Of a stretch of 44,111 bases of DNA, positions 11,314 to 36,922 are shown one piece after another. Positions within the stretch are counted from its first letter, which is position 1, and the number at the start of each line of letters is the position of its first letter. Location: contig JBDLQG010000001.1 of NCBI GenBank assembly GCA_039800705.1, positions 1 through 44,111 on the forward strand, written 5' to 3'. The position numbers and the translations under genes were made by a program. The stretch comes from Pseudomonadota bacterium (lineage in GTDB: Bacteria; Pseudomonadota; Gammaproteobacteria; Methylococcales; Methylomonadaceae). The notes under the pieces are model-generated. The model saw only the letters and a program-made list of their open reading frames with translations, was not told the origin of the DNA and did not search any database.

Positions 11314-12651
11314 ATGGCACAAACAGTTTTATTATTTGCCAACAATGCGCGGTCTACGCTTAGCGGCTCAATAACAGCCGTTGCAACATCGGCAACATTG
11401 GCAACAGGCACGGGCGTTTTATTCCCCAACCCTAACAACGCGATAGGAGAATATTTCAAACTCACTTTTACAGACCAGGCAACAGGGCTATTAAATGAAA
11501 TAGTGCATGTAACGGCGGTGGTTGGTGATGTTGTAACTATTGTTAGAGCTCAAGAGGGCACAACTGCACTGGCATGGAATGCGGGTGATTTTGCTGTGAA
11601 TATGTGGACGAAGAACAGTGCAAACGCAATGTTACAAGCTCCACAAGTGCAAAACAACACTATTAATTCTGTAACTGCTGGCGGTACATCTGATGCAATC
11701 ACGGCAACCTACGCGCCTGTTTATGCCGCTTGGGTTGACGGTATGACGTTTTTTGCAAAAATCACGGCGGCTAATACGACTACAACACCGACAATTAGTC
11801 CTAACGGTTTGACAGCAAAAACGATTGTAAAAGGTGGCGGCGTTGCATTAATTGCAGGTGATTTGCAAGTAGGAGCAATTGCAGAATTTAAATACAGCTC
11901 AACGCTTGATAAGGTGTTACTGCAAAATCCAGCGACATCGGGTAATGGCGGACAGTTTACGCTGTTACAGTTGATAACGACTAACTTGTACATAAAACCA
12001 AACGCTTCAACGCCTAATACTAAGCTAGATATTACGGCGCAAGAAGCAATGTTGATTTCTGGCAATAACGTAATTAAACCAACATCCATAAGCTGTACGC
12101 TTGACATAACTGTCAATGGTTTAAATGGACTTGATACAGGCACCCGCGCGGCTAATACTTGGTACACAATATATTTTATTAGCAATGGCACAACAACGGG
12201 CGCAATAGCATCGTTATCAACATCATCTCCAACTTTACCAAGCGGTTATACTTTTAGTGGGTTTATTGGGGCATTTAGAACAAATGGCTCTAGTAACATT
12301 ATCCATTTTACACAACGGCAAAATGTTGTTGAGTTTACTGAGACAAACGTATTAACAGCAGGGCAAGCAAGCGTATCAGGTACGTTTCAAGGGCTAAGTA
12401 TTGCAACTGCTGTGCCTGCTCAAGCTAAACGCGCTAAATGTCGTTTATCAAGTTCAATTGCGGGTAACGGCGTGTTAAAAGTGGCAGCAAACGCAAGCGG
12501 TGACGGTGTGGCGGGTGGCAATATTTCAACAGCTAATCTTTACGAAACTGTGCAAGTTCTTATCACCGATCAACAACTACTGTACTGGACACAAAACAGT
12601 AACACGGCGGGGGCTGTGTGTATTATCAACATTTCTGGGTTTGAATTCTGA
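11314..12651 (+). CDS. tail fibre / receptor-binding protein
   Basis: 445 aa, Ser/Thr/Gly/Asn-rich, directly after the baseplate genes. Confidence 0.6.
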   Translation: MAQTVLLFANNARSTLSGSITAVATSATLATGTGVLFPNPNNAIGEYFKLTFTDQATGLLNEIVHVTAVVGDVVTIVRAQEGTTALAWNAGDFAVNMWTKNSANAMLQAPQVQNNTINSVTAGGTSDAITATYAPVYAAWVDGMTFFAKITAANTTTTPTISPNGLTAKTIVKGGGVALIAGDLQVGAIAEFKYSSTLDKVLLQNPATSGNGGQFTLLQLITTNLYIKPNASTPNTKLDITAQEAMLISGNNVIKPTSISCTLDITVNGLNGLDTGTRAANTWYTIYFISNGTTTGAIASLSTSSPTLPSGYTFSGFIGAFRTNGSSNIIHFTQRQNVVEFTETNVLTAGQASVSGTFQGLSIATAVPAQAKRAKCRLSSSIAGNGVLKVAANASGDGVAGGNISTANLYETVQVLITDQQLLYWTQNSNTAGAVCIINISGFEF

Positions 12652-13043
12652 TGAAACGAGTTTATAAAAACGAAAACGGCGTTATCTCTAACGTACGTTA
12701 TGAAGACGACGATTATAAATGCCAAAAAAATGAAAAGGAATTGGCATATTCTGATGATTTGATGGGCGGCATAGTTAATGTTAATAGCAATAATATTGCT
12801 GAACAATACGCGGCCATTAATTTTTTTGTTAGTGACACAATTAAAAACGGTCATGATTACGACAGTTTTGAAGAAACACGCGCGTGGTACGATGATGATG
12901 AATTCAGAATTGAAGCTAAGGCGGTCAATGCTTGGTGTCGTCAATGCTTTAAAATTCAGGCGGATATTAAATCAGGCGTGAAACAATATGACAGCGTTGA
13001 AGCCGTTATTGCTGATTTACCAAAATATGAAATTTTGGCATGA
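12651..13043 (+). CDS. fibre-adjacent protein (possible fibre chaperone)
   Basis: 130 aa with TGATG coupling to the fibre gene. No recognisable Tfa motif. Confidence 0.4.
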   Translation: MKRVYKNENGVISNVRYEDDDYKCQKNEKELAYSDDLMGGIVNVNSNNIAEQYAAINFFVSDTIKNGHDYDSFEETRAWYDDDEFRIEAKAVNAWCRQCFKIQADIKSGVKQYDSVEAVIADLPKYEILA

Positions 13044-13258
13044 AGGTATCCTTGCCCTTGCTGTTTGTTGCGGCGTGTTGCGTGGTATCTTGCCAAAGTC
13101 CTGATGAGATACGCTTAGAACACGAACAGCGGCTAGAAAAACAAACCGTGGAATTTGTTAATAGATTGACTTATGCCCGTGATAGACGCGGTAATTGTTT
13201 AATAATTGATCGTCAAACGTGGCATTTTGCAAGTATAGATTGCAACTCAGCTAAATAA
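13040..13258 (+). CDS. small lipoprotein (lipobox LFVAAC)
   Basis: MKVSLPLLFVAAC... signal peptide plus lipobox Cys. Last gene of the late operon, ATGA-coupled. Confidence 0.6.
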   Translation: MKVSLPLLFVAACCVVSCQSPDEIRLEHEQRLEKQTVEFVNRLTYARDRRGNCLIIDRQTWHFASIDCNSAK

Positions 13259-13283
13259 AAAAAGCCCCATAACGGGGCTTTTA
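13256..13283. terminator. bidirectional rho-independent terminator
   Basis: AAAAAAGCCCC-ATAAC-GGGGCTTTT, with A and T tracts on both sides, between convergent genes. Confidence 0.8.
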
Positions 13284-13285
13284 CA

Positions 13286-13630
13286 TTATGGTAGCCAATA
13301 ATGCTCGTTTTTTTGCTTTGATAACAAATTTTTAACACGCCTCAAATTTTCCAATGATAAATCGGTTATTTCAAGGTATTCTATCGCTTCTGATGGCGTA
13401 AATACTGCGTTTTCTAAATCATTAAAAACTTGGTCATGAGTTAATTCTAAATCACTTAATTTCATAAAATCCCCTGAAATATCATTTATTAATTTAAGTA
13501 TTTTCTTTCCCCTTTTGATGGATAACTTAAGCTTTTCGTTTGGCTTGTCTTCGTTCATGTGCTGTATAAATCTAACAGCATCTTGACCGCTTAATTCAGT
13601 GCGACCGAAATTTGTACTTTTTATTGCCAT
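13286..13630 (-). CDS. hypothetical protein, 114 aa (last gene of the small leftward operon)
   Basis: ATG at 13630 preceded by GGAGC RBS. The track start at 13735 would overlap the upstream small ORF. Confidence 0.55.
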   Translation of the reverse strand: MAIKSTNFGRTELSGQDAVRFIQHMNEDKPNEKLKLSIKRGKKILKLINDISGDFMKLSDLELTHDQVFNDLENAVFTPSEAIEYLEITDLSLENLRRVKNLLSKQKNEHYWLP

Positions 13631-13646
13631 AATTGCTCCATTTAAT

Positions 13647-13823
13647 CTACATTGATTTAACTTGCTCAAACAATTGTTTGCTTTTTGCAAGTTGCACATG
13701 ATACTTATCGGCATCTTTAAGCTTAACGCTATCATGAGCTTTAATAAACCGCCTGCGATAGTTTAAAAATTCCCTGCCTACCCGCGCTACTATGGCGCGG
13801 TCTTTTTTGTTTCCATGTTTCAT
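13647..13823 (-). CDS. 58-aa basic protein (not in ORF track)
   Basis: MKHGNKKDRAIVARVGREFLNYRRRFIKAHDSVKLKDADKYHVQLAKSKQLFEQVKSM. ATGA overlap with the HTH gene stop. Confidence 0.5.
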   Translation of the reverse strand: MKHGNKKDRAIVARVGREFLNYRRRFIKAHDSVKLKDADKYHVQLAKSKQLFEQVKSM

Positions 13824-14035
13824 AAATCCGCCTTTTTAACAATCTTGTAAATCGGGTGGGTACTTGTAAACAATTGAAAAATCTCCCAATAAACCAAAGG
13901 TATAGTCTGATTTACATTGCGTTGTCCATCCCATCTTTGCACTGTTGATTCGCTAACGTCTAACAGTGCGGCAACCTGCTTAGTAGTTAAATTAAGCCGC
14001 GTCCGTGCGGCTTTAAATTCTTGTTGTGTAATCAT
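13820..14035 (-). CDS. XRE/Cro-type helix-turn-helix regulator (Aca-like position)
   Basis: LTTKQVAALLDVSESTVQRWDG is a classic HTH. ATGA-coupled to the upstream acidic ORF. Confidence 0.7.
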   Translation of the reverse strand: MITQQEFKAARTRLNLTTKQVAALLDVSESTVQRWDGQRNVNQTIPLVYWEIFQLFTSTHPIYKIVKKADL

Positions 14036-14253
14036 TGTTTTACACCATACTCACTGTCTATTTTTTCCAAAAGTTCAAAATTTGAACAATCAAAAAAAGT
14101 GACCATTGTTTCATTTTCTTCCATGTCTTCTAAAAACTCAGCAAATAAACCAGCTCGCAAAATATGTATATCCGCGTCTTCTAAACAATCGCCTATGTAT
14201 GTAACGCCGTTTTGTTTATCAGCTTGATAATAACCAGTTAAATATGCACTCAT
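14032..14253 (-). CDS. 73-aa strongly acidic protein (candidate anti-defence, Acr-like position)
   Basis: ATG at 14253 with GGAG RBS. D+E = 16 versus K+R = 4. First gene after a promoter region that carries repeats. Confidence 0.55.
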   Translation of the reverse strand: MSAYLTGYYQADKQNGVTYIGDCLEDADIHILRAGLFAEFLEDMEENETMVTFFDCSNFELLEKIDSEYGVKQ

Positions 14254-14304
14254 GACACTCTCCAATAATTCAGCTAGACCGCCTAGCTGTTAGGTAGATA
14301 TGAT

Positions 14305-14346
14305 ATAGCAATTTACTATAAAGTCAAATTTATTTATAGCAATTTA
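14305..14346. repeat. two direct 11-mers ATAGCAATTTA spaced 31 bp (operator-like) in divergent promoter region
   Basis: Copies at 14305-14315 and 14336-14346, between the leftward operon and the rightward 14427 gene. Confidence 0.5.
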
Positions 14347-14426
14347 ATGTGACAAATTGTCGCACCATGCTTATTTTTGCGTAAGTTATTGATTGCTGTA
14401 TAATTATGTTTTTTGGAGTCTTAGCA

Positions 14427-14660
14427 ATGTGTCGCACACCTGTCGCAATAATCGAAAACGGTACACTTTGGAAGCGCAAACACGGCGATTTTACGCATTT
14501 GGTTTATGAAGTCACTAGCATATCTGAGTATCAAGTAAGTTATCGTGTTAAAGATGATGTGGCGCGTGATATAAGCGTCACACTGTACAAAGAACAGTTT
14601 TTAAAGATATTCCGCGAGCTAACACCCGATGAAATTCTGGAAAACTGCCCGATTGTTTGA
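14427..14660 (+). CDS. hypothetical protein, 77 aa
   Basis: ATG at 14427 with GGAG at 14414-14417, downstream of a TATAAT at about 14394. Confidence 0.55.
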   Translation: MCRTPVAIIENGTLWKRKHGDFTHLVYEVTSISEYQVSYRVKDDVARDISVTLYKEQFLKIFRELTPDEILENCPIV

Positions 14661-14719
14661 TACACTATAAAGTCAGTTTTGGATTGTGTATCCGCAATCG
14701 CTGAAAAGTCTGACATTTA

Positions 14720-14757
14720 AAACCCGCCTGTCGTGAGATACGCGGGTTTTATTTTGT
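14720..14757. terminator. rho-independent terminator (usable in both directions)
   Basis: AAAACCCGC-(13 nt)-GCGGGTTTTATTTTGTTT. Confidence 0.7.
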
Positions 14758-14789
14758 TTACCATTTTCCTGATGTCAGGAGAATGGTAA
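14758..14789. repeat. 15-bp-arm near-perfect palindrome TTACCATTTTCCTGA-TG-TCAGGAGAATGGTAA
   Basis: Read directly, with one G-T position. Sits where leftward and rightward transcription converge. Confidence 0.6.
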
Positions 14790-14848
14790 CAGATAATTAA
14801 AACGCTGATTAAAGATAATCTAAAATCAATCACAGCGTAAGCGATTGT

Positions 14849-15175
14849 TTATAAATCAATTTTATAACCTAATTTTGACTTAACATAACAACGCATTGCT
14901 GCAATTAGTGGCGTTTCCCCTGTTGAAACATGAAAACAAAAAATATCGGCATTCCATTCATCTTGACTAATAAACTTATTTAAACTTATTTTCTCGCGTT
15001 CAATAATCTCATAAGCCTGCGCTTGATCCGTGCAAGGCGTATAATCTTTTAATTGTAAAATTACTTGATTATCATTATCTAGCCAAAACATTTCAGAATT
15101 AATCAAACCATTCGCAAACGCAACAGCTTGATTAAGTTCGTCAATCGTTAAATCATCAACTTTTTTGATTGTCAT
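14849..15175 (-). CDS. hypothetical protein, DUF2591-like by eye
   Basis: 108 aa. The pattern LTIDELNQAVAFA...TPLIAAMRCYVKSKLG resembles that family. Confidence 0.55.
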   Translation of the reverse strand: MTIKKVDDLTIDELNQAVAFANGLINSEMFWLDNDNQVILQLKDYTPCTDQAQAYEIIEREKISLNKFISQDEWNADIFCFHVSTGETPLIAAMRCYVKSKLGYKIDL

Positions 15176-15359
15176 CTTTTACCTCAACAAACCATATAAA
15201 CCTACCGTTAAACCCGATTAATGTCGATTTAGGGCTAGTGCACGCAGGCATTAAACAATCGTCAGTGTTATAAAAATAACACCCTGCGCATGAAGTTTGA
15301 TTTACATTGTCTGGTATTGGCTCAACACGCAACACAACATTATCGGGTAATTTGCTCAT
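15156..15359 (-). CDS. small Cys-rich protein
   Basis: 67 aa, operon context. Confidence 0.5.
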   Translation of the reverse strand: MSKLPDNVVLRVEPIPDNVNQTSCAGCYFYNTDDCLMPACTSPKSTLIGFNGRFIWFVEVKDDNQKS

Positions 15360-16051
15360 TTTGCACTCGCTAAAATTTCTGCAAAGGCATCGGCTACGGC
15401 TTTGCAGTCTTCACGATTTGTAAAACAATGATTTGTTTTTAAATAAAAAAATTGAACGGGGTCGTTTCCCCATTCTTCACTAATCACCGCGTCTACCTCA
15501 AAAAAGTAAAATGTTGTACCAACCGCAGGCGCAACATTCAACGGCGCGTTATATTCTTTGCCGTTTATTGTGATTGTGCGGGGTTTTAATCTAAACTCGT
15601 CTGTTTCATGCCACAACGGCTTTTCATCTTTTAAATCTTTCCAGCGTGCTTCGGCAATTTGTCCGTCATTGTATCTGCATTGCCAACGCAACTTATCATC
15701 ATCACTGCACTGATAATATTCAATCATGCTGTCAGCGTGTGGGTGGCGGCGGTAATATACATCAACATAAAATTTTGGAGGCAAAGTAAGATTTACAAAA
15801 TTTCCGTTAAACCTTTCTCCTTGCCACAACTGGTAAGCATCAAGCCCGTCAATTGTTGCGCATGTTTCAAGGTCGCGCACATACTGTGATTTCAGCTCAG
15901 CGTGTCGGTTTAGTTGTTGTGGATCTGGTTTATCAATCGGTTTAATGTCATAACGGACTAACAGCGTTTCGTTATCGCACATAGTGGAGCGAGGAATATC
16001 ACCGACTAATTTATAGCCATGCGGTACATAAAATTCGATTTCTTTTTTCAT
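15356..16051 (-). CDS. hypothetical protein, 231 aa
   Basis: Long ORF with ATG start, coupled to the downstream gene. Confidence 0.7.
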   Translation of the reverse strand: MKKEIEFYVPHGYKLVGDIPRSTMCDNETLLVRYDIKPIDKPDPQQLNRHAELKSQYVRDLETCATIDGLDAYQLWQGERFNGNFVNLTLPPKFYVDVYYRRHPHADSMIEYYQCSDDDKLRWQCRYNDGQIAEARWKDLKDEKPLWHETDEFRLKPRTITINGKEYNAPLNVAPAVGTTFYFFEVDAVISEEWGNDPVQFFYLKTNHCFTNREDCKAVADAFAEILASAK

Positions 16052-22203: not shown

Positions 22204-22478
22204 TCGCTTCTATATGCGCATAAATTGCAGACATTTTCAGCTTGCATTTGCAAATTAGGATTGCAATTAAAGCATTCTGGCGGCTCAATAAGAGTGCTCC
22301 AGAAACTATAATATTCAGCAGGATTTAAACCCATACAATCAACAATTAATACTTGTTTAATCTCGCATTTTTTACAACGTCTTATTGTTGATTTTGACGA
22401 TATTCCTAGTAAATCATAATCACCTTGTTGTATCGTTTCCCATTGATGGAAATGAAATAGTTTTTTTAAATTAATCAT
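22191..22478 (-). CDS. Cys-rich small protein
   Basis: 95 aa containing CKKC...CFNC...CNLC. Confidence 0.6.
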   Translation of the reverse strand: MINLKKLFHFHQWETIQQGDYDLLGISSKSTIRRCKKCEIKQVLIVDCMGLNPAEYYSFWSTLIEPPECFNCNPNLQMQAENVCNLCAYRSECIK

Positions 22479-23161
22479 TGGGTGTCGTGTCCGTGTATTA
22501 AGTTATGGCAATCTTTGCAGACTGTTAAAAGATGGTTCATTGGTTCATTGCCCAATTCTGCATAGGTTATGTGATGCACTCTGAGATTGTTTTTACTAAA
22601 ACAAAGTTTACATTCATTGTTATCAAGAGCCATTCTGTTTTGTCGTTGTCTTTTCCACTTTTCAGAATGAATATAATCGTTGTATTCGTCTAGCAGGATT
22701 TGTGGGATTTTGTGGGCATATTTAGGAATATCAAACGGTGTTAAATTTATAGCAGAACCAAGCAATAATAAATATGTTTCGTTCCAACTATTTGAAATCC
22801 ATTCAATAACTAAATCTGAAATATAACCAAGATGTTCCTTGCATTCTGGGCAATACAAAATATATGATTTTCTATCATCGTCATGTTGTATAAACCCAAA
22901 ACTTAACCCGTTACGGTTATGGTTATAATGCTCATCCGATAATTTCCAAAAATTATCTTTAAATACATCGGCTTTAAAATTTAAAGCTTTTCCTGATTGT
23001 TCAACAAGTTCATAACCACAATTTAAAGCAATCTCTTTTTTTACAGCCGTACCAAAGAACGAACCGCATTTAATACAATACTGTCTATATTGCGTTCTAC
23101 CTATTGAATCAGTTGTAAAACAATACTTAAATTCTGTTGATTCACATACTTTACATTTCAT
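22475..23161 (-). CDS. zinc-ribbon protein with C-terminal HNH nuclease motif
   Basis: CKVC..CIKC and CPEC at the N-terminus and middle. CKLC...RVHHITY...NHLLTVCKDCHNLIHGH at the C-terminus. Confidence 0.7.
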   Translation of the reverse strand: MKCKVCESTEFKYCFTTDSIGRTQYRQYCIKCGSFFGTAVKKEIALNCGYELVEQSGKALNFKADVFKDNFWKLSDEHYNHNRNGLSFGFIQHDDDRKSYILYCPECKEHLGYISDLVIEWISNSWNETYLLLLGSAINLTPFDIPKYAHKIPQILLDEYNDYIHSEKWKRQRQNRMALDNNECKLCFSKNNLRVHHITYAELGNEPMNHLLTVCKDCHNLIHGHDTQ

Positions 23162-33397: not shown

Positions 33398-36300
33398 ATG
33401 AATGCAGAACTTGACATAACTGGCAGCGGCTTAACGACTCCATTACTAGACATATTAATGGCGGATAACATACAAGTTGGTTCTGATTTAGGTTATCAGT
33501 TATGTAAACAACTGTATTTACATCACCCGTTAGGGGCAAAAATAGTCGATTTACCGATTGTTAAAGCCCTATCTAAACCGCGTAAACTATCCGTTCCTAA
33601 TAGTCCTGAGGACTTGGTTGTAAAGGCGTTTGTTGACGAGTGGAACGCGTTAAAAGTCGATAGCATTATAGCCAACATTGCACGTCAAGCCAGAATCTAC
33701 GGCTTTGGTAGCGCAATTATGGGCGTTGATGATGAGGGCGTAGAATCCGAACAAAAGACTAAAACTAATGAGCCGCTACCGTTAGAACAACTGTATAAAC
33801 TCAATATCTTTTTTAACGTACTCGACCCATTGAATACAGCGGGTAGCGTTATTCTATCTCAAGATGCAAACAGCGTAGACTTTCAACGTATTGACTCGGT
33901 AACGTGCCAAGGCAAGCCTTATCATCATTCGCGCGTTTGTACGTTCATGAATGAGCGACCTATCTACCTATCTTACACACAGTCAAGCTATGGCTATGTG
34001 GGCAGGTCTGTATTTACCCGTTCATTGTTCCCTATGAAGTCATACATTAGAAGTATGATTACTGATGACAGCGTGGCTACTAAGGCTGGCTTGTTAGTCA
34101 TGAAAACTAAAAAGGCGGGTACTATTGTCAATAAAACTATGCTGGCAATCAGTGAGTTCAAACGGACAGTTTTGAAAGGCGCGGCTACTGGCAACGTGCT
34201 GGATATGGGTACTGATGACAGCGTAGAGACGCTTAACATGACTAACGTCAATCAAGCAATGGACGCAAGCCGTAAGAACATACTTGAGAACATAGCCGCA
34301 GCCGCAGGATTGCCTGCCAAGTTGTTATCTAACGAAACCTTTGCCACTGGTTTTGGAGAAGGTGCAGAAGACGCAAAAGAAATTGCTGAATATATCGACT
34401 GGTTTAGAAATGAATTGCAACCACTCTATGATTTTTTTGATCAAATTGTCATGTATCGCGCATGGAATCCTGAATTTTATGAAACTATTAAACCGCGCTG
34501 TCCTAGTTATAAAGACGTATCCTGGCAAGCGGCTTTTAATAGCTGGAAAAAGTCATTTTGTGCAGAATGGGAAAACTTGTTAAAAGAACCCGATAGCGAG
34601 TTGATTAAAGTTGAAGAAACTAAATTTAAAGCTATTAATGATTTAATAGGCGCGGTGTATGACAAATTAGACCCTGTTAATCAAGGGGCTGTATTGGAAT
34701 GGGCACAAACTAACCTAAACGATAACAAGTTGTTATTTCCTAATCCGTTAGAGATTGATCCCGACTTATTGATTCAATATAGTGCTGAACAACAAGCGCA
34801 AGCACAGCAACAACAAGCGCAACAGTTGGCATTGATGCAACAACAACCACAAAGCAATGAGCAGCCAGCCTATGCTGATTCTGTTGCGTATGCTGATGGT
34901 TGGATAACACTTAATGGCGAAAGTGGAGAAGAGGGTAACGGCGGTAGTCATGTATTTGTCGGGGCAGGTGGCACAATCGAAAAAGGTGCGAGCGGTTTAA
35001 AAGGTAAAAAGCTCAGTGATTTGAAAGGTACTAAGAAGTTTACTAAGTATGAGACCAATGCCGAGCGTGAACAGCCAGAACCATTAAAAGGCGCGGCAAG
35101 GCTAAGAGCAATGAATGAGCAAAGAGCTAAAGAAAAAGAAGCCGATAAATTAGCCAATCCAGAAAAATACGAACCAGCAAAAAGCAGCCCAAAAAAGAAC
35201 ACGCTAGAATCAGATCATCATGTAAATGAACATTATGCAAAGGCGACTATTCCAGAGCTTGAAAAAATGCACAAAGACATGAAAGCTAAAGGCGAGAAAT
35301 TATCACTTAAGGCTTTGGAAAACACACCAACTGGAAAAGGTGGTGGCGGCAATCAAAGAAAAAACAACCAGCGAGACACTACTGGCGGGAATATGCTTGC
35401 TAACGCTATGGATTTGGAATCATACATAAATGCGCGAAAAAATGCAGAGCGTGAACAGTCGCAGGCTAAGGAAACCAAGCAAAGCGAGCAATCCGCCACT
35501 GATAAGCCAATCGAGTCAAATAATTTGACAAAACAATCAAATCATGAAACAATGTCTCCAACGTCTCAATCCGAGGCGCACACTGGAGAAGCTAAAATGA
35601 ACGCAAATAATATCTTAAATGCTGTAAAAACAGACAAAAAACAAAGCACGTTGTTTTTAAAACCAAGTCATACAGCAATAGCAATTGCAAGCATGACGTC
35701 AACACAAATGGACGGCAAGCATGAAAAAAGCGTTATGTCTTTAAATGACTCGCTGGCTGCAATTGGCATAAACAAAGACGGAACATTAATGAATGGTGGC
35801 AAATTAGACAAAGATGAATTTGAAAAAATAAAAGATTTTGTTAGTAAAAACAAAGGGTTTTATAACAAAAATACCGATGAGTTTGGCGGAGTAGGTGGCG
35901 AATGGTTAGAATCGCAAGCCAAAAAATTTGAGATCAATCACAAAGCATACGGAAGAGACGCGGATAAAAAAAATGCAGCTTATCTTGCTGAAAAAGAAAA
36001 AGAAAAAGAGTTTTACAAAAATCAAGCCGCTCCAGCAAAACAACAATCAGCGTCTAATAGCGGCGGTAATAAATCGTCTGTATTAACGTCAGGTGCTGAT
36101 GCGGGCAAAATAAAAGTTGAATATGGACATAATTCAAAAATGTACGATGATTTGAAAAAATTAAAAGGAGCAAAATACATTAAAAGCGGATTGTTTTATA
36201 TCCCGTCAGAACATGCAAAAGCAGTAGCTGATTTATCAAAAAAACATGGGTTAGAGTTAAGTGATGGTTTTAAGCGAAATTTTCCAGAAGAGTCAAACCT

Positions 36301-36922
36301 GACTCCACAATCAAATCATGAAACAATGTCTCCAACGTCTCAATCCGAGGCGAACACTGGAGACAAGACAATGAACGTAACAGATTTTTTAGAAAAACAT
36401 TATCCACACAATGCAAAAAATGCTCAGTACACAAAAGGTACTGAACACCACGACAGTAATGTTAATTTCCATCTTGATAATGCAATCAAGGAAGAAATGG
36501 GTAGCGATATTAAGCCAATATCGCAAAATGGCGGCGGCGAGTTTTCTGACAAACAGCGTAAAAATTTTATGCAAGCGGTTGAAGAATCTCAAAACGAAAA
36601 CAAACCTGCATTGGTAGGTACTGAAAAACAAGTAGAGTGGGCAAACAGCATCAGAGACAAAGCATTTAAAAAGCTTAATTATGTTAAGTCGTTTTTAAAT
36701 AACATTAATTATGATGCCATTCCAGAGGCTAACCATGCAGTTATAAAGCCATTAATCGGCGAAATACTGACAAACATTGAGGACATAAAAAGCATTGATA
36801 GTGCTAAAAAATGGATTGACAACAAAGGTTTTGATTTAAATAGCCAACTTTTAAATCCAAGCAAAAAAGGTGTTATAAATTCTTTGTTGACATCAGCGGC
36901 AACGGATAAATTTCAAAAATGA
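33398..36922 (+). CDS. portal protein (aa 1 to ~480) fused to a ~700-aa C-terminal extension
   Basis: Follows terL directly. A Gln-rich linker QQAQAQQQQAQQLALMQQQPQ separates the portal-sized N-terminal part from a Lys/Glu-rich multi-segment tail. Confidence 0.75.
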   Translation: MNAELDITGSGLTTPLLDILMADNIQVGSDLGYQLCKQLYLHHPLGAKIVDLPIVKALSKPRKLSVPNSPEDLVVKAFVDEWNALKVDSIIANIARQARIYGFGSAIMGVDDEGVESEQKTKTNEPLPLEQLYKLNIFFNVLDPLNTAGSVILSQDANSVDFQRIDSVTCQGKPYHHSRVCTFMNERPIYLSYTQSSYGYVGRSVFTRSLFPMKSYIRSMITDDSVATKAGLLVMKTKKAGTIVNKTMLAISEFKRTVLKGAATGNVLDMGTDDSVETLNMTNVNQAMDASRKNILENIAAAAGLPAKLLSNETFATGFGEGAEDAKEIAEYIDWFRNELQPLYDFFDQIVMYRAWNPEFYETIKPRCPSYKDVSWQAAFNSWKKSFCAEWENLLKEPDSELIKVEETKFKAINDLIGAVYDKLDPVNQGAVLEWAQTNLNDNKLLFPNPLEIDPDLLIQYSAEQQAQAQQQQAQQLALMQQQPQSNEQPAYADSVAYADGWITLNGESGEEGNGGSHVFVGAGGTIEKGASGLKGKKLSDLKGTKKFTKYETNAEREQPEPLKGAARLRAMNEQRAKEKEADKLANPEKYEPAKSSPKKNTLESDHHVNEHYAKATIPELEKMHKDMKAKGEKLSLKALENTPTGKGGGGNQRKNNQRDTTGGNMLANAMDLESYINARKNAEREQSQAKETKQSEQSATDKPIESNNLTKQSNHETMSPTSQSEAHTGEAKMNANNILNAVKTDKKQSTLFLKPSHTAIAIASMTSTQMDGKHEKSVMSLNDSLAAIGINKDGTLMNGGKLDKDEFEKIKDFVSKNKGFYNKNTDEFGGVGGEWLESQAKKFEINHKAYGRDADKKNAAYLAEKEKEKEFYKNQAAPAKQQSASNSGGNKSSVLTSGADAGKIKVEYGHNSKMYDDLKKLKGAKYIKSGLFYIPSEHAKAVADLSKKHGLELSDGFKRNFPEESNLTPQSNHETMSPTSQSEANTGDKTMNVTDFLEKHYPHNAKNAQYTKGTEHHDSNVNFHLDNAIKEEMGSDIKPISQNGGGEFSDKQRKNFMQAVEESQNENKPALVGTEKQVEWANSIRDKAFKKLNYVKSFLNNINYDAIPEANHAVIKPLIGEILTNIEDIKSIDSAKKWIDNKGFDLNSQLLNPSKKGVINSLLTSAATDKFQK
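35513..35598 (+). repeat. in-frame repeat, copy 1 (core 35534-35589)
   Basis: CAATCAAATCATGAAACAATGTCTCCAACGTCTCAATCCGAGGCG(C)ACACTGGAGA, encoding QSNHETMSPTSQSEAHTGE. Confidence 0.9.
36293..36378 (+). repeat. in-frame repeat, copy 2 (core 36308-36363)
   Basis: 55/56 nt identical to copy 1, 774 nt (258 codons) downstream, encoding QSNHETMSPTSQSEANTGD. Confidence 0.9.

Follow-up and report, generated by a model that had tools for sequence, protein, structure and literature searches.

A candidate Aca10-like, self-repressed accessory operon behind the tail-fibre genes of a ~44-kb tailed phage

Introduction

What is the function of a compact operon of four small genes that stands between the ends of the late and early operons of a tailed phage, and does it belong to the acr-aca type, in which small cargo genes are accompanied by the gene of an autoregulatory helix-turn-helix (HTH) protein? 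This question is raised by positions 13286-14346 of contig JBDLQG010000001.1 (assembly GCA_039800705.1), whose first 44,111 nucleotides (nt) were analysed as a whole and are referred to here as the window. Most anti-CRISPR (Acr) and other anti-defence proteins have been found through their association with such a regulator. In a preliminary description, the leftward operon was read as an acr-aca locus with repeated operator-like sites, and the two extra genes were thought to allow a toxin-antitoxin (TA) alternative.

With moderate confidence, we read the locus as an autonomous accessory operon of the acr-aca type that is Aca10-like, represses itself and has been inserted behind the tail-fibre genes of a phage of ~44 kb. 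Since the operon has the build of an Aca-type unit (a promoter palindrome, an orphan acidic protein and an Aca10-related repressor), it probably carries new counter-defence genes; we infer the label 'anti-CRISPR' from the architecture alone. The regulatory half of the earlier acr-aca proposal stands, namely the profile homology of the HTH protein, the coupled and variable small genes and the Aca-type layout, whereas its cargo half found no match among Acr or anti-defence families.

The operon is read from the - strand. Its first gene, the 'cargo' gene in the position of an Acr, encodes an acidic orphan protein of 73 amino acids (aa) (14032-14253; net charge -12, pI 4.05), and its Shine-Dalgarno (SD) sequence GGAG (14260-14263) stands 6 nt before the ATG. 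It is followed by the genes of the 71-aa HTH regulator, a predicted autorepressor (13820-14035), of a 58-aa basic protein (13647-13823; net +10, pI 10.45) and of a 114-aa protein composed of two modules (13286-13630). The four genes had been described before, and the description is borne out: the same four were called independently on a public Logan contig (the Logan contigs that bear the operon come from the same phage), and a codon-usage gene caller gave positive coding scores to all of them. Coupling was said to run throughout the operon. It does so at two ATGA overlaps (14032-14035 and 13820-13823, the latter joining the HTH stop to the start of the 58-aa gene), but the third junction is a 16-nt gap and the 114-aa gene has its own GGAG ribosome-binding site (RBS), so that the claim was slightly overstated.

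Homology of the HTH regulator to Aca10 and Aca3

At 71 aa, the regulator fits the size range of the small HTH proteins that act as Aca regulators (about 60-130 aa). It passes the Pfam cut-off for HTH_23 (26.2 bits, cut-off 24.6), falls just under those of HTH_17, HTH_3 and HTH_31, and matches PHROG 7950, 'transcriptional repressor', with E 1.5e-9. An exhaustive phmmer search of 1.84 billion representatives returned 114 proteins, including full-length relatives of 60-99 aa that are 58-32% identical; among them are P0010 (58%), P0014 (55%) and P0019 (47%). The consensus of this family is ..KAARxxAGLTxxEAAxLVGVSxxTWQRWEGQ..(T/E)IPxAxWxLFxLLTxxHP. A word-indexed search recovered only the protein itself, and a single-protein locus search in IMG/VR recovered nothing. 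The best NCBIfam match, the VC1465/XafT HTH, reached 32 bits against a cut-off of 70 and was judged to be generic HTH similarity, and PADLOC gave weak noise only.

The proposed kinship with Aca proteins was examined with a family profile (A2) made from 16 relatives and searched against all PDB sequences, and it was upheld by the two best matches. The first is Aca10 of Pseudomonas citronellolis (PDB 7XI5, chain 7xi5_A; PMC9410881), at 43.9 bits and E 1.4e-10, over residues 5-60 of 65 and thus with the dimerisation helix included. The second is Aca3 of Neisseria meningitidis (PDB 9VT3, chain 9vt3_A), known from acrIIC operons, at E 3.7e-6. Generic Xre, HipB and C2 repressors come after these two, and Aca2 appears near E 5e-3. 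A narrower subfamily profile (A3), made from the four closest sequences, gave 96.8% and E 2.1e-10 for Aca10 and 93.8% for Aca3 by hhalign. In pairwise alignments, the window HTH and Aca10 are 31-34% identical over 51-53 residues (BLASTP: 34% over 53 aa).

The likeness extends to specific features. With the regulator of the acrIC7-acrIC6-aca10 operon of P. citronellolis, the window protein shares a small four-helix HTH fold of 65-71 aa and the signature W-x-x-W-E ... P-x-x-W-E-L-F-x-L-x-T. With Aca3 it shares the HTH and a segment RWE...P-L-V-x-W, whereas the identity to Aca3 is lower, Aca3 has an insertion in the region of the recognition helix, and hosts and cargo are different.

Promoter, operator and 5' untranslated region

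The control region is the strongest evidence for an Aca-type reading. It occupies the 173 nt between the cargo gene and a rightward gene of 77 aa; as the 77-aa gene is divergent to the operon, the shared promoter region is divergent as well. The leftward promoter (14300-14327, - strand) consists of a -35 element TTGACT (14327-14322), a 16-nt spacer and a -10 element TATCAT (14305-14300). It is near-consensus for sigma-70 (10/12 matches) and the top promoter-like site in a scan of 2.4 kb. The spacer is filled by a 17-bp palindrome, TATAGCAATTTACTATA (14304-14320), with 8-bp arms paired at 7/8 positions around a 1-nt centre. This palindrome, the predicted operator O1, touches the -10 element and is the sole occurrence of TATAG-N7-CTATA in the window. 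Palindromes of 17 bp in which 7 or more of the 8 arm positions pair have a density of 8e-4 per nt in the window, and the 173-nt region holds three of the 36, against an expectation of 0.14.

In the preliminary description, two direct 11-mers placed 31 bp apart were taken as operator-like sites. The spacing of 31 bp, start to start, is correct, but the repeat is an exact 12-mer, TATAGCAATTTA, at 14304-14315 and 14335-14346. It has no further exact copies in the 44-kb window, and only 0.4% of 2000 dinucleotide shuffles of the 173-nt region produced an exact direct repeat of at least 12 nt. As for the operator-like character, copy 1 does form part of O1, since it covers the left arm together with the centre base and extends into the right arm; the likely operator is nevertheless the 17-bp palindrome, and copy 2, upstream of the -35 element, is a half-site with 4/8 arm pairs if read as a 17-mer. 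We predict that copy 2 would serve as an upstream auxiliary half-site, comparable to the second inverted repeat (IR2) of several Aca promoters. In known Aca operons, one inverted repeat always lies in the core promoter, and a second, similar one is found nearby, upstream or downstream, in those of Aca1, 2, 4, 5, 9 and 10 (PMC9410906). The direct 12-mers were dropped as the operator proper, the palindrome being a better fit to the family; it is conceivable that a ribbon-helix-helix (RHH)-like N-domain of the 114-aa protein binds direct repeats.

The predicted 5' untranslated region (5'UTR) of the leftward transcript contains a perfect 7+5+7 palindrome of 19 bp (14271-14289, - strand), CAGCTAG-GCGGT-CTAGCTG, which reads CAGCTAG-ACCGC-CTAGCTG on the + strand. 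As RNA it would form a hairpin (-10 kcal/mol); alternatively, it may serve as a second operator.

The same arrangement recurs elsewhere. Twelve loci from IMG/VR, metagenomes and metagenome-assembled genomes (MAGs), in which unrelated cargo is combined with an Aca10-like HTH, share a near-identical module, TTGACA..TATATCCAnTGGATATAAT..GGGCAGC-N5-GCAGCCC..GGAG..ATG (L010, L011, L012, L013, L014, L017, L018, L019, L020, L039, L043 and L045). Its promoter part reads cTTGACAAnn-TATATCCAnTGGATATA-AT, and the -10 element is overlapped by a 17-bp palindrome whose 8-bp arms flank a 1-nt centre; about 12 nt after the palindrome comes a 19-nt hairpin element, GGGCAGC-N5-GCAGCCC, and then GGAG and the cargo ATG. 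Other members of the family have palindromes of their own, such as ATTATAACAATTTGTTATAAT in L016 and ATACGGCCATTGGCCGTAT in L031, the latter resembling the experimentally defined Aca10 site ATACGCTCATTGAGCGTAT (PMC9410881). The distance from the palindrome centre to the cargo ATG is 57-60 nt in 11 of 13 loci (62 in L016, 46 in L018), and the 59 nt of the window equal the modal value of the family. The window also has the family's 16-nt spacer and its 17-bp palindrome with 8-bp arms and a 1-nt centre. The hairpin starts 14 nt after the palindrome, compared with 12 nt in the family, and palindrome and ATG are 50 nt apart in the window as in the family. The likeness between the window promoter and those of the family is architectural, a matter of geometry and not of sequence, as expected if operator and recognition helix have diverged together.

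A separate observation concerns members that are solitary or otherwise arranged. At L032:1551-1625, L035:3195-3259 and L036:3161-3211, two copies of the locus's own 17-bp palindrome (for example GTAGCGGAGACCGCTAC and GTAGCGGAAACCGCTAC) stand 33-58 bp apart, a spacing that echoes the 31 bp of the window 12-mers.

In the layout published for the aca1, aca2, aca10 and aca12 operons, a DNA motif over the promoter is followed after 10-15 nt by the transcription start site (TSS), the 5'UTR opens with an RNA motif, and the cargo start is conserved (PMC13551039). Judged from their sequences, the window and its relatives appear to match it, with promoter, inverted-repeat operator, 5'UTR hairpin and cargo ATG in this order. 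Like the acrIC7-acrIC6-aca10 operon, the window places the repressor gene downstream of small cargo and a palindrome with a 1-nt centre over the core promoter, and like the aca10 operon it has a predicted 5'UTR hairpin just after the TSS and a cargo start at a fixed distance (PMC13551039). There are also differences. The window operator TATAGCAATTTACTATA is unrelated to ATACGCTCATTGAGCGTAT and shorter (17 as opposed to 19-21 bp), the window cargo is unrelated to AcrIC6 and AcrIC7 as far as this can be tested, and the window has two genes after the HTH gene and a divergent partner gene. The dual DNA and RNA control exerted by Aca2 and Aca1 offers a further parallel, as it involves a promoter inverted repeat, a structured 5'UTR start and the cargo start codon; RNA binding by Aca10 is unproven, with electrophoretic mobility shift assays negative so far (PMC13551039).

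Related loci and the strength of the Aca-type reading

Pattern searches with two subfamily alignments yielded 28 IMG/VR loci, 5 metagenome loci and 5 MAG contigs, a few of which are the same contig repeated. The pattern of the close subfamily A3 found nothing in 185k genomes, and the wide alignment A2 was set aside as a search pattern for being too diverse. In 19 of the 29 loci that could be evaluated, the HTH gene overlaps or abuts a small upstream gene on the same strand, usually by 4 or 1 nt. The 24 genes immediately upstream fall into 20 families without detectable mutual similarity, and many of their products are acidic, several of them strongly. The link between homologous HTH genes and variable small genes that an acr-aca locus would lead one to expect is thus present. 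The HTH gene is the last gene of the operon in about 12 loci, and the cassettes occupy differing positions in the genomes of different phages.

Several results weigh against the Aca-type reading and are brought together here. The first concern the regulator: a phmmer search of PDB with the single window sequence gave non-significant matches (Aca3 at E 0.32, Aca10 at E 1.4), so that the Aca assignment holds only at the profile level. In Aca10, Q22, Q37 and R44 serve DNA binding, and G49 and E52 serve the dimer (PMC9410881). In the alignment, Q37 corresponds to Q33 and E52 to E51, Q22 falls on T18, G49 falls on V/Y, and R44 lies in a loop of differing length. Clear equivalents thus exist only for Q37 and E52, not for R44, G49 and Q22, and R44 and G49 are not conserved in the window protein, unlike in Aca10. 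This pattern fits a different operator and makes strict membership of Aca10 uncertain.

The next concern the control region. An nhmmer profile of 13 related promoters did not detect the window promoter, and RNAalifold found no consensus structure among the 5'UTRs. Unlike those of Aca2 and Aca1, the window hairpin leaves the SD free and is statistically ordinary, being no more stable than shuffles (z = -0.36), whereas several family 5'UTRs are more stable (z = -2.4 to -3.0); in L010 and L039, the predicted fold has an outer stem in which the SD is paired to the 5' end (z = -2.6 and -3.0).

The last concern the cargo and the surroundings. The 73-aa acidic protein retrieved only itself among 5.8 billion proteins, and the window cargo matched no known Acr or anti-defence family and no solved Acr structure. 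The 64 neighbours of HTH homologues carry no Acr or anti-defence label in Pfam and PHROGs and match no known defence or toxin family; the upstream neighbours searched against solved Acr structures found no match either. An association of the HTH gene or its homologues with a validated Acr was thus absent from the Pfam families, PHROG families and solved Acr structures consulted for the 64 neighbours and the window cargo. In the window, the HTH gene is the second of four and not the last. Small early phage genes vary everywhere, so that variable upstream genes count for little on their own, and genes like aca are also found without acr genes (PMC9410906).

The first alternative is an ordinary autoregulated moron or early-gene cassette, in which a Cro-like HTH would repress the promoter from which it is expressed and the small proteins made with it would serve host takeover, superinfection exclusion or some other role outside counter-defence. 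All of the cargo consists of orphans without any functional signal, the wide occurrence of Aca-like HTH genes apart from known acr genes agrees with such a cassette, and the neighbours of the homologues include methylases, lysis genes and terminase genes. Against this, among characterised proteins the HTH is most closely related to two validated Aca proteins, and not to Cro or CI. Furthermore, the combination of a strong promoter, a core-promoter palindrome, a 5'UTR hairpin, a fixed distance to the ATG and swapped cargo is that of the published aca architecture, and the cassettes sit at differing positions in different phages. We therefore regard the moron cassette as possible and on the whole unlikely.

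Under the Aca10-like reading, the operon would operate as follows. On entry of the phage, the near-consensus sigma-70 promoter TTGACT-16-TATCAT would fire and give rise to a burst of cargo, made up of the 73-aa acidic orphan, the 71-aa Aca10/Aca3-like HTH, the 58-aa basic and the 114-aa two-module proteins. A dimer of the HTH would then bind O1 in the spacer, with help from the upstream half-site, and shut the promoter off, and the 5'UTR hairpin could add control at the RNA level, as is known from Aca2 and Aca1 and has been predicted for Aca10. The likeliest targets of the cargo proteins would be the defences of the host or of rival prophages, and the 114-aa protein may imitate the smaller member of a two-gene GNAT cassette. 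The sequences show how the genes are arranged, that the HTH is homologous to Aca proteins, that the architecture recurs in related loci and that the 114-aa protein is a mosaic. We infer DNA binding at O1, repression and every anti-defence activity, the acidic cargo being without relatives.

The cargo proteins and a GNAT-partner domain

The preliminary description had looked to Acr, anti-defence and TA families for relatives of the other proteins. This expectation was disappointed: none of them matched an Acr or anti-defence family, and the only relatives found are the partial ones of the 114-aa protein, a GNAT partner among them. The 73-aa acidic protein has no match in Pfam, PHROG, PADLOC, NCBIfam, PDB, or phage or plasmid records, and its AlphaFold2 (AF2) model (pLDDT 54.2) is too poor for a fold search. 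For the 58-aa basic protein, no relative was found in Pfam, PHROG, PADLOC, the IMG/VR locus search and phage and plasmid tblastn, among others, and HicA is unmatched; the 77-aa protein has no relatives in any resource queried. With all five proteins concatenated, a tblastn search of phages and plasmids returned only ORF14e of Vibrio phage Ch457 and weak HTH noise.

The 114-aa protein is a mosaic of two modules. An exact-product look-up gave nothing, and its AF2 model is all-helical, of low confidence (pLDDT 54.5) and too poor for a fold search. Residues 1-52 align with the full length of proteins of 52-62 aa, at 56-76% identity, and share with them the motif MAIKSSxFGRxELSGxDAARFIxHMNEDKP. In four independent loci, these small proteins are encoded 3-24 nt ahead of a protein of ~185 aa (L048:3001-3748, L049:561-1310, L004:5001-5558 and L003:261-1012, the last being ORF14e/ORF14d of Vibrio phage Ch457). 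Three of the ~185-aa proteins pass Pfam GNAT thresholds, and their mutual identity is 53-61%. The Ch457 cassette lies in an accessory region of a phage annotated as Peduovirus (P2-like). The small partner has no relative in Pfam, PADLOC or PDB, and the GNAT proteins have no PADLOC match. As an observation in its own right, this small-protein/GNAT cassette recurs in the accessory regions of phages and prophages and has a TA-like layout.

The second module, residues ~65-110, is 74% identical to a 63-aa protein (P0005) and has an HTH-like sequence pattern. P0005 is itself encoded by the last gene of an operon from a marine metagenome (L005:416-1360), in which a 71-aa Cro/YdaS-like HTH is followed by proteins of 107, 77 and 63 aa; this operon may be another regulated accessory cassette.

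Near the 114-aa gene, a GNAT gene is absent: a terminator stands directly after the gene, and tblastn of three partner GNATs against the whole window reached E 0.45 at best. A phage-borne antitoxin-like partner without a toxin suggests, as far as its sequence goes, a possible decoy against the GNAT cassettes of resident prophages. One may go further and picture a two-pronged counter-defence unit under Aca10-like control. In such a unit, the acidic orphan would be a hitherto undescribed inhibitor, directed against CRISPR-Cas or another defence, and the 114-aa protein would be a 'decoy antitoxin' that neutralises the GNAT toxins of prophages (for example that of Ch457), whose cassettes would thus be a previously unnamed anti-phage system; the repressor would in addition extend its reach to the 77-aa gene, by way of the half-site within the -10 region of that gene, and act on the RNA of the 5'UTR hairpin. 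Taken as a whole, this extended scheme is speculative and rather improbable.

The GNAT-partner domain also bears on the second alternative, a TA or addiction module, which might be formed either by the upstream gene and the HTH gene in reverse, HigBA-like order, or by the 58-aa and 114-aa genes with the 114-aa protein as the antitoxin. The earlier suggestion that the two extra genes could be such a module gains from the finding that residues 1-52 are homologous to the small partner of GNAT cassettes in four independent loci, but no toxin gene is present. The layout of these loci, with a small gene ahead of a GNAT gene, corresponds to the antitoxin-toxin order of the type II TA systems TacAT, AtaRT and KacAT. 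Unlike those systems, the domain shows no similarity to DUF1778-type antitoxins or to a solved structure (there was no Pfam match to DUF1778/RHH antitoxins of GNAT toxins, and the PDB profile search was without TacA, AtaR and KacA), the window is without a GNAT gene, and the domain is fused to a second module. Aca proteins structurally resemble HigA2 (PMC9410906). The HTH has weak matches to Xre-type antitoxin models (PF20432 at 23.4 bits, cut-off 25.8; MqsA and ParS far below their cut-offs). HTH proteins of 61-75 aa leave little space for a toxin-binding domain. The upstream protein is very acidic, unlike toxins of the RelE/HigB type, no toxin family was found in either the window or the 64 neighbours, and the 58-aa protein matches nothing, HicA included. 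HicAB was dropped for the 58-aa/114-aa pair, as it showed no signal of HicA or HicB. On balance, a TA module is quite improbable.

Phage context and the divergent gene

The 44-kb window looks like an apparently complete tailed-phage genome of ~44 kb. The + strand carries replication genes with a VapE-like primase-helicase, then the terminase, portal, head and tail genes, and finally a tail-fibre gene (11314-12651). The early operon runs leftward with ERF, YqaJ, SSB, HNH and NinX-like genes (the last with a NinX Pfam match) and ends at 14849. The four-gene cassette lies between the ends of these late and early operons, after the tail-fibre genes, and is flanked by terminators. Its position between two terminators, noted earlier, was confirmed by a terminator scan. 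A strong bidirectional intrinsic terminator (13260-13282), AAAAGCCCC-GTTA-GGGGCTTTT, with a 10-pair stem and then a T run, closes the four-gene operon on the - strand as well as the late operon on the + strand. The rightward gene is closed by a terminator-like site at 14731-14745 (+), and the early leftward operon, after the NinX-like gene, by another at 14847-14827 (-). The GC content of the locus is 35.6%, compared with 39.9% for the window. No DNA similarity was found between 12600-15400 and 50,697 phage records, an Rfam scan returned terminator-like noise only, and no tRNA genes were found.

The divergent gene (14427-14660, + strand; GGAG RBS), which is missing from the preliminary description, encodes the 77-aa orphan and is placed between the four-gene operon and the end of the early leftward operon. 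In the Logan gene call, it starts at the ATG at 14406 and its product has 84 aa. Its predicted promoter (14377-14404, + strand), with TTGCGT, 16 nt and TATAAT, has a weak -35 element that lies below the threshold of the promoter scan. The rightward -10 region, ATTGCTGTATAAT, is an inverted 11/13 copy of the leftward ATTGCTATATCAT. Between the divergent promoters stands the third 17-bp palindrome, TGTGACAAATTGTCGCA (14348-14364), the half-site of which, TGTCGCA, recurs at 14430 and 14441.

The distribution of this half-site may be recorded separately: three of its + strand copies fall within 90 nt (14358, 14430 and 14441), compared with seven in the whole 44 kb, the first inside TGTGACAAATTGTCGCA and the other two in codons 2-7 of the 77-aa gene. 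From its sequence, the cluster may be a second operator set for another regulator. Together with the inverted -10 copy, it suggests that the divergent gene takes part in the same circuit, possibly via a second DNA-binding protein.

The second 12-mer copy, the rightward promoter and the 77-aa gene lie between the two copies of a 17-nt direct repeat of the form ACTATAAAGTCA(A/G)(A/T)TTT. The first copy of ACTATAAAGTCAAATTT lies at 14315-14331, and the second (15/17) lies at 14664-14680, just past the stop of the 77-aa gene. The pair may be what a recombination or an insertion left on either side of the rightward module; if so, the module would have been inserted into the promoter region of the operon.

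Divergent promoters with three palindromes within 173 nt, the TGTCGCA cluster at the start of the 77-aa gene, the inverted -10 copy and a location behind the tail genes, where the late region closes, recall the small divergent regulatory unit with overlapping operators of P22 immI (mnt / arc-ant), but a secondary immunity or developmental switch of that kind, with shared operators, an antirepressor-like function and the 77-aa gene as a counter-regulator, is very improbable, since the regulator is Aca10/Aca3-like, Pfam and PHROGs detected no RHH (Arc/Mnt-like) or Ant-like domain, homologous HTH cassettes exist without a divergent partner, and nothing points to a temperate lifestyle. No integrase and no CI-type repressor appears in the gene and Pfam listings, which extend over ~33 of the 44 kb; the rest, sampled by PHROGs only, gave structural genes. 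A lysogeny repressor was dropped as a candidate for the same reason, as neither an integrase nor a CI was found.

Three further genes of the window are worth recording. The late operon ends, immediately ahead of the bidirectional terminator, with an open reading frame (ORF) of 72 aa (13040-13258, +) that has a signal of the lipoprotein type (MKVSLPLLFVAACCVVSC...); neither Pfam nor PHROG gave a match for it, and its product could be a superinfection-exclusion lipoprotein or a similar moron. An ORF of 1174 aa (33398-36922, +) matches portal proteins only over residues 23-491; the other ~680 residues have no assignment, and for a portal fusion it is unusually long. In the early leftward operon, the first gene (22475-23161, -; 228 aa) matches HNH-endonuclease PHROGs in its C-terminal half only, with no Pfam match on record.

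Significance

The architecture of such operons has already been described in papers of 2022-2026; the window adds a divergent member with entirely novel cargo, and no concept is changed by it. If the Aca10-like reading is true, up to four uncharacterised candidate counter-defence proteins, none of which has a full-length relative (the 114-aa protein has partial ones), would be flagged by a regulator of a validated family, and the Aca10/Aca3-like family would be extended to a low-GC phage with a different operator. The window and the twelve loci that share a promoter module form a compact comparative set for the co-evolution of operator specificity with the HTH. Finally, through its orphan GNAT-partner domain, the window draws attention to a cassette of a small protein and a GNAT that recurs in phage accessory regions and has no name in current defence catalogues.

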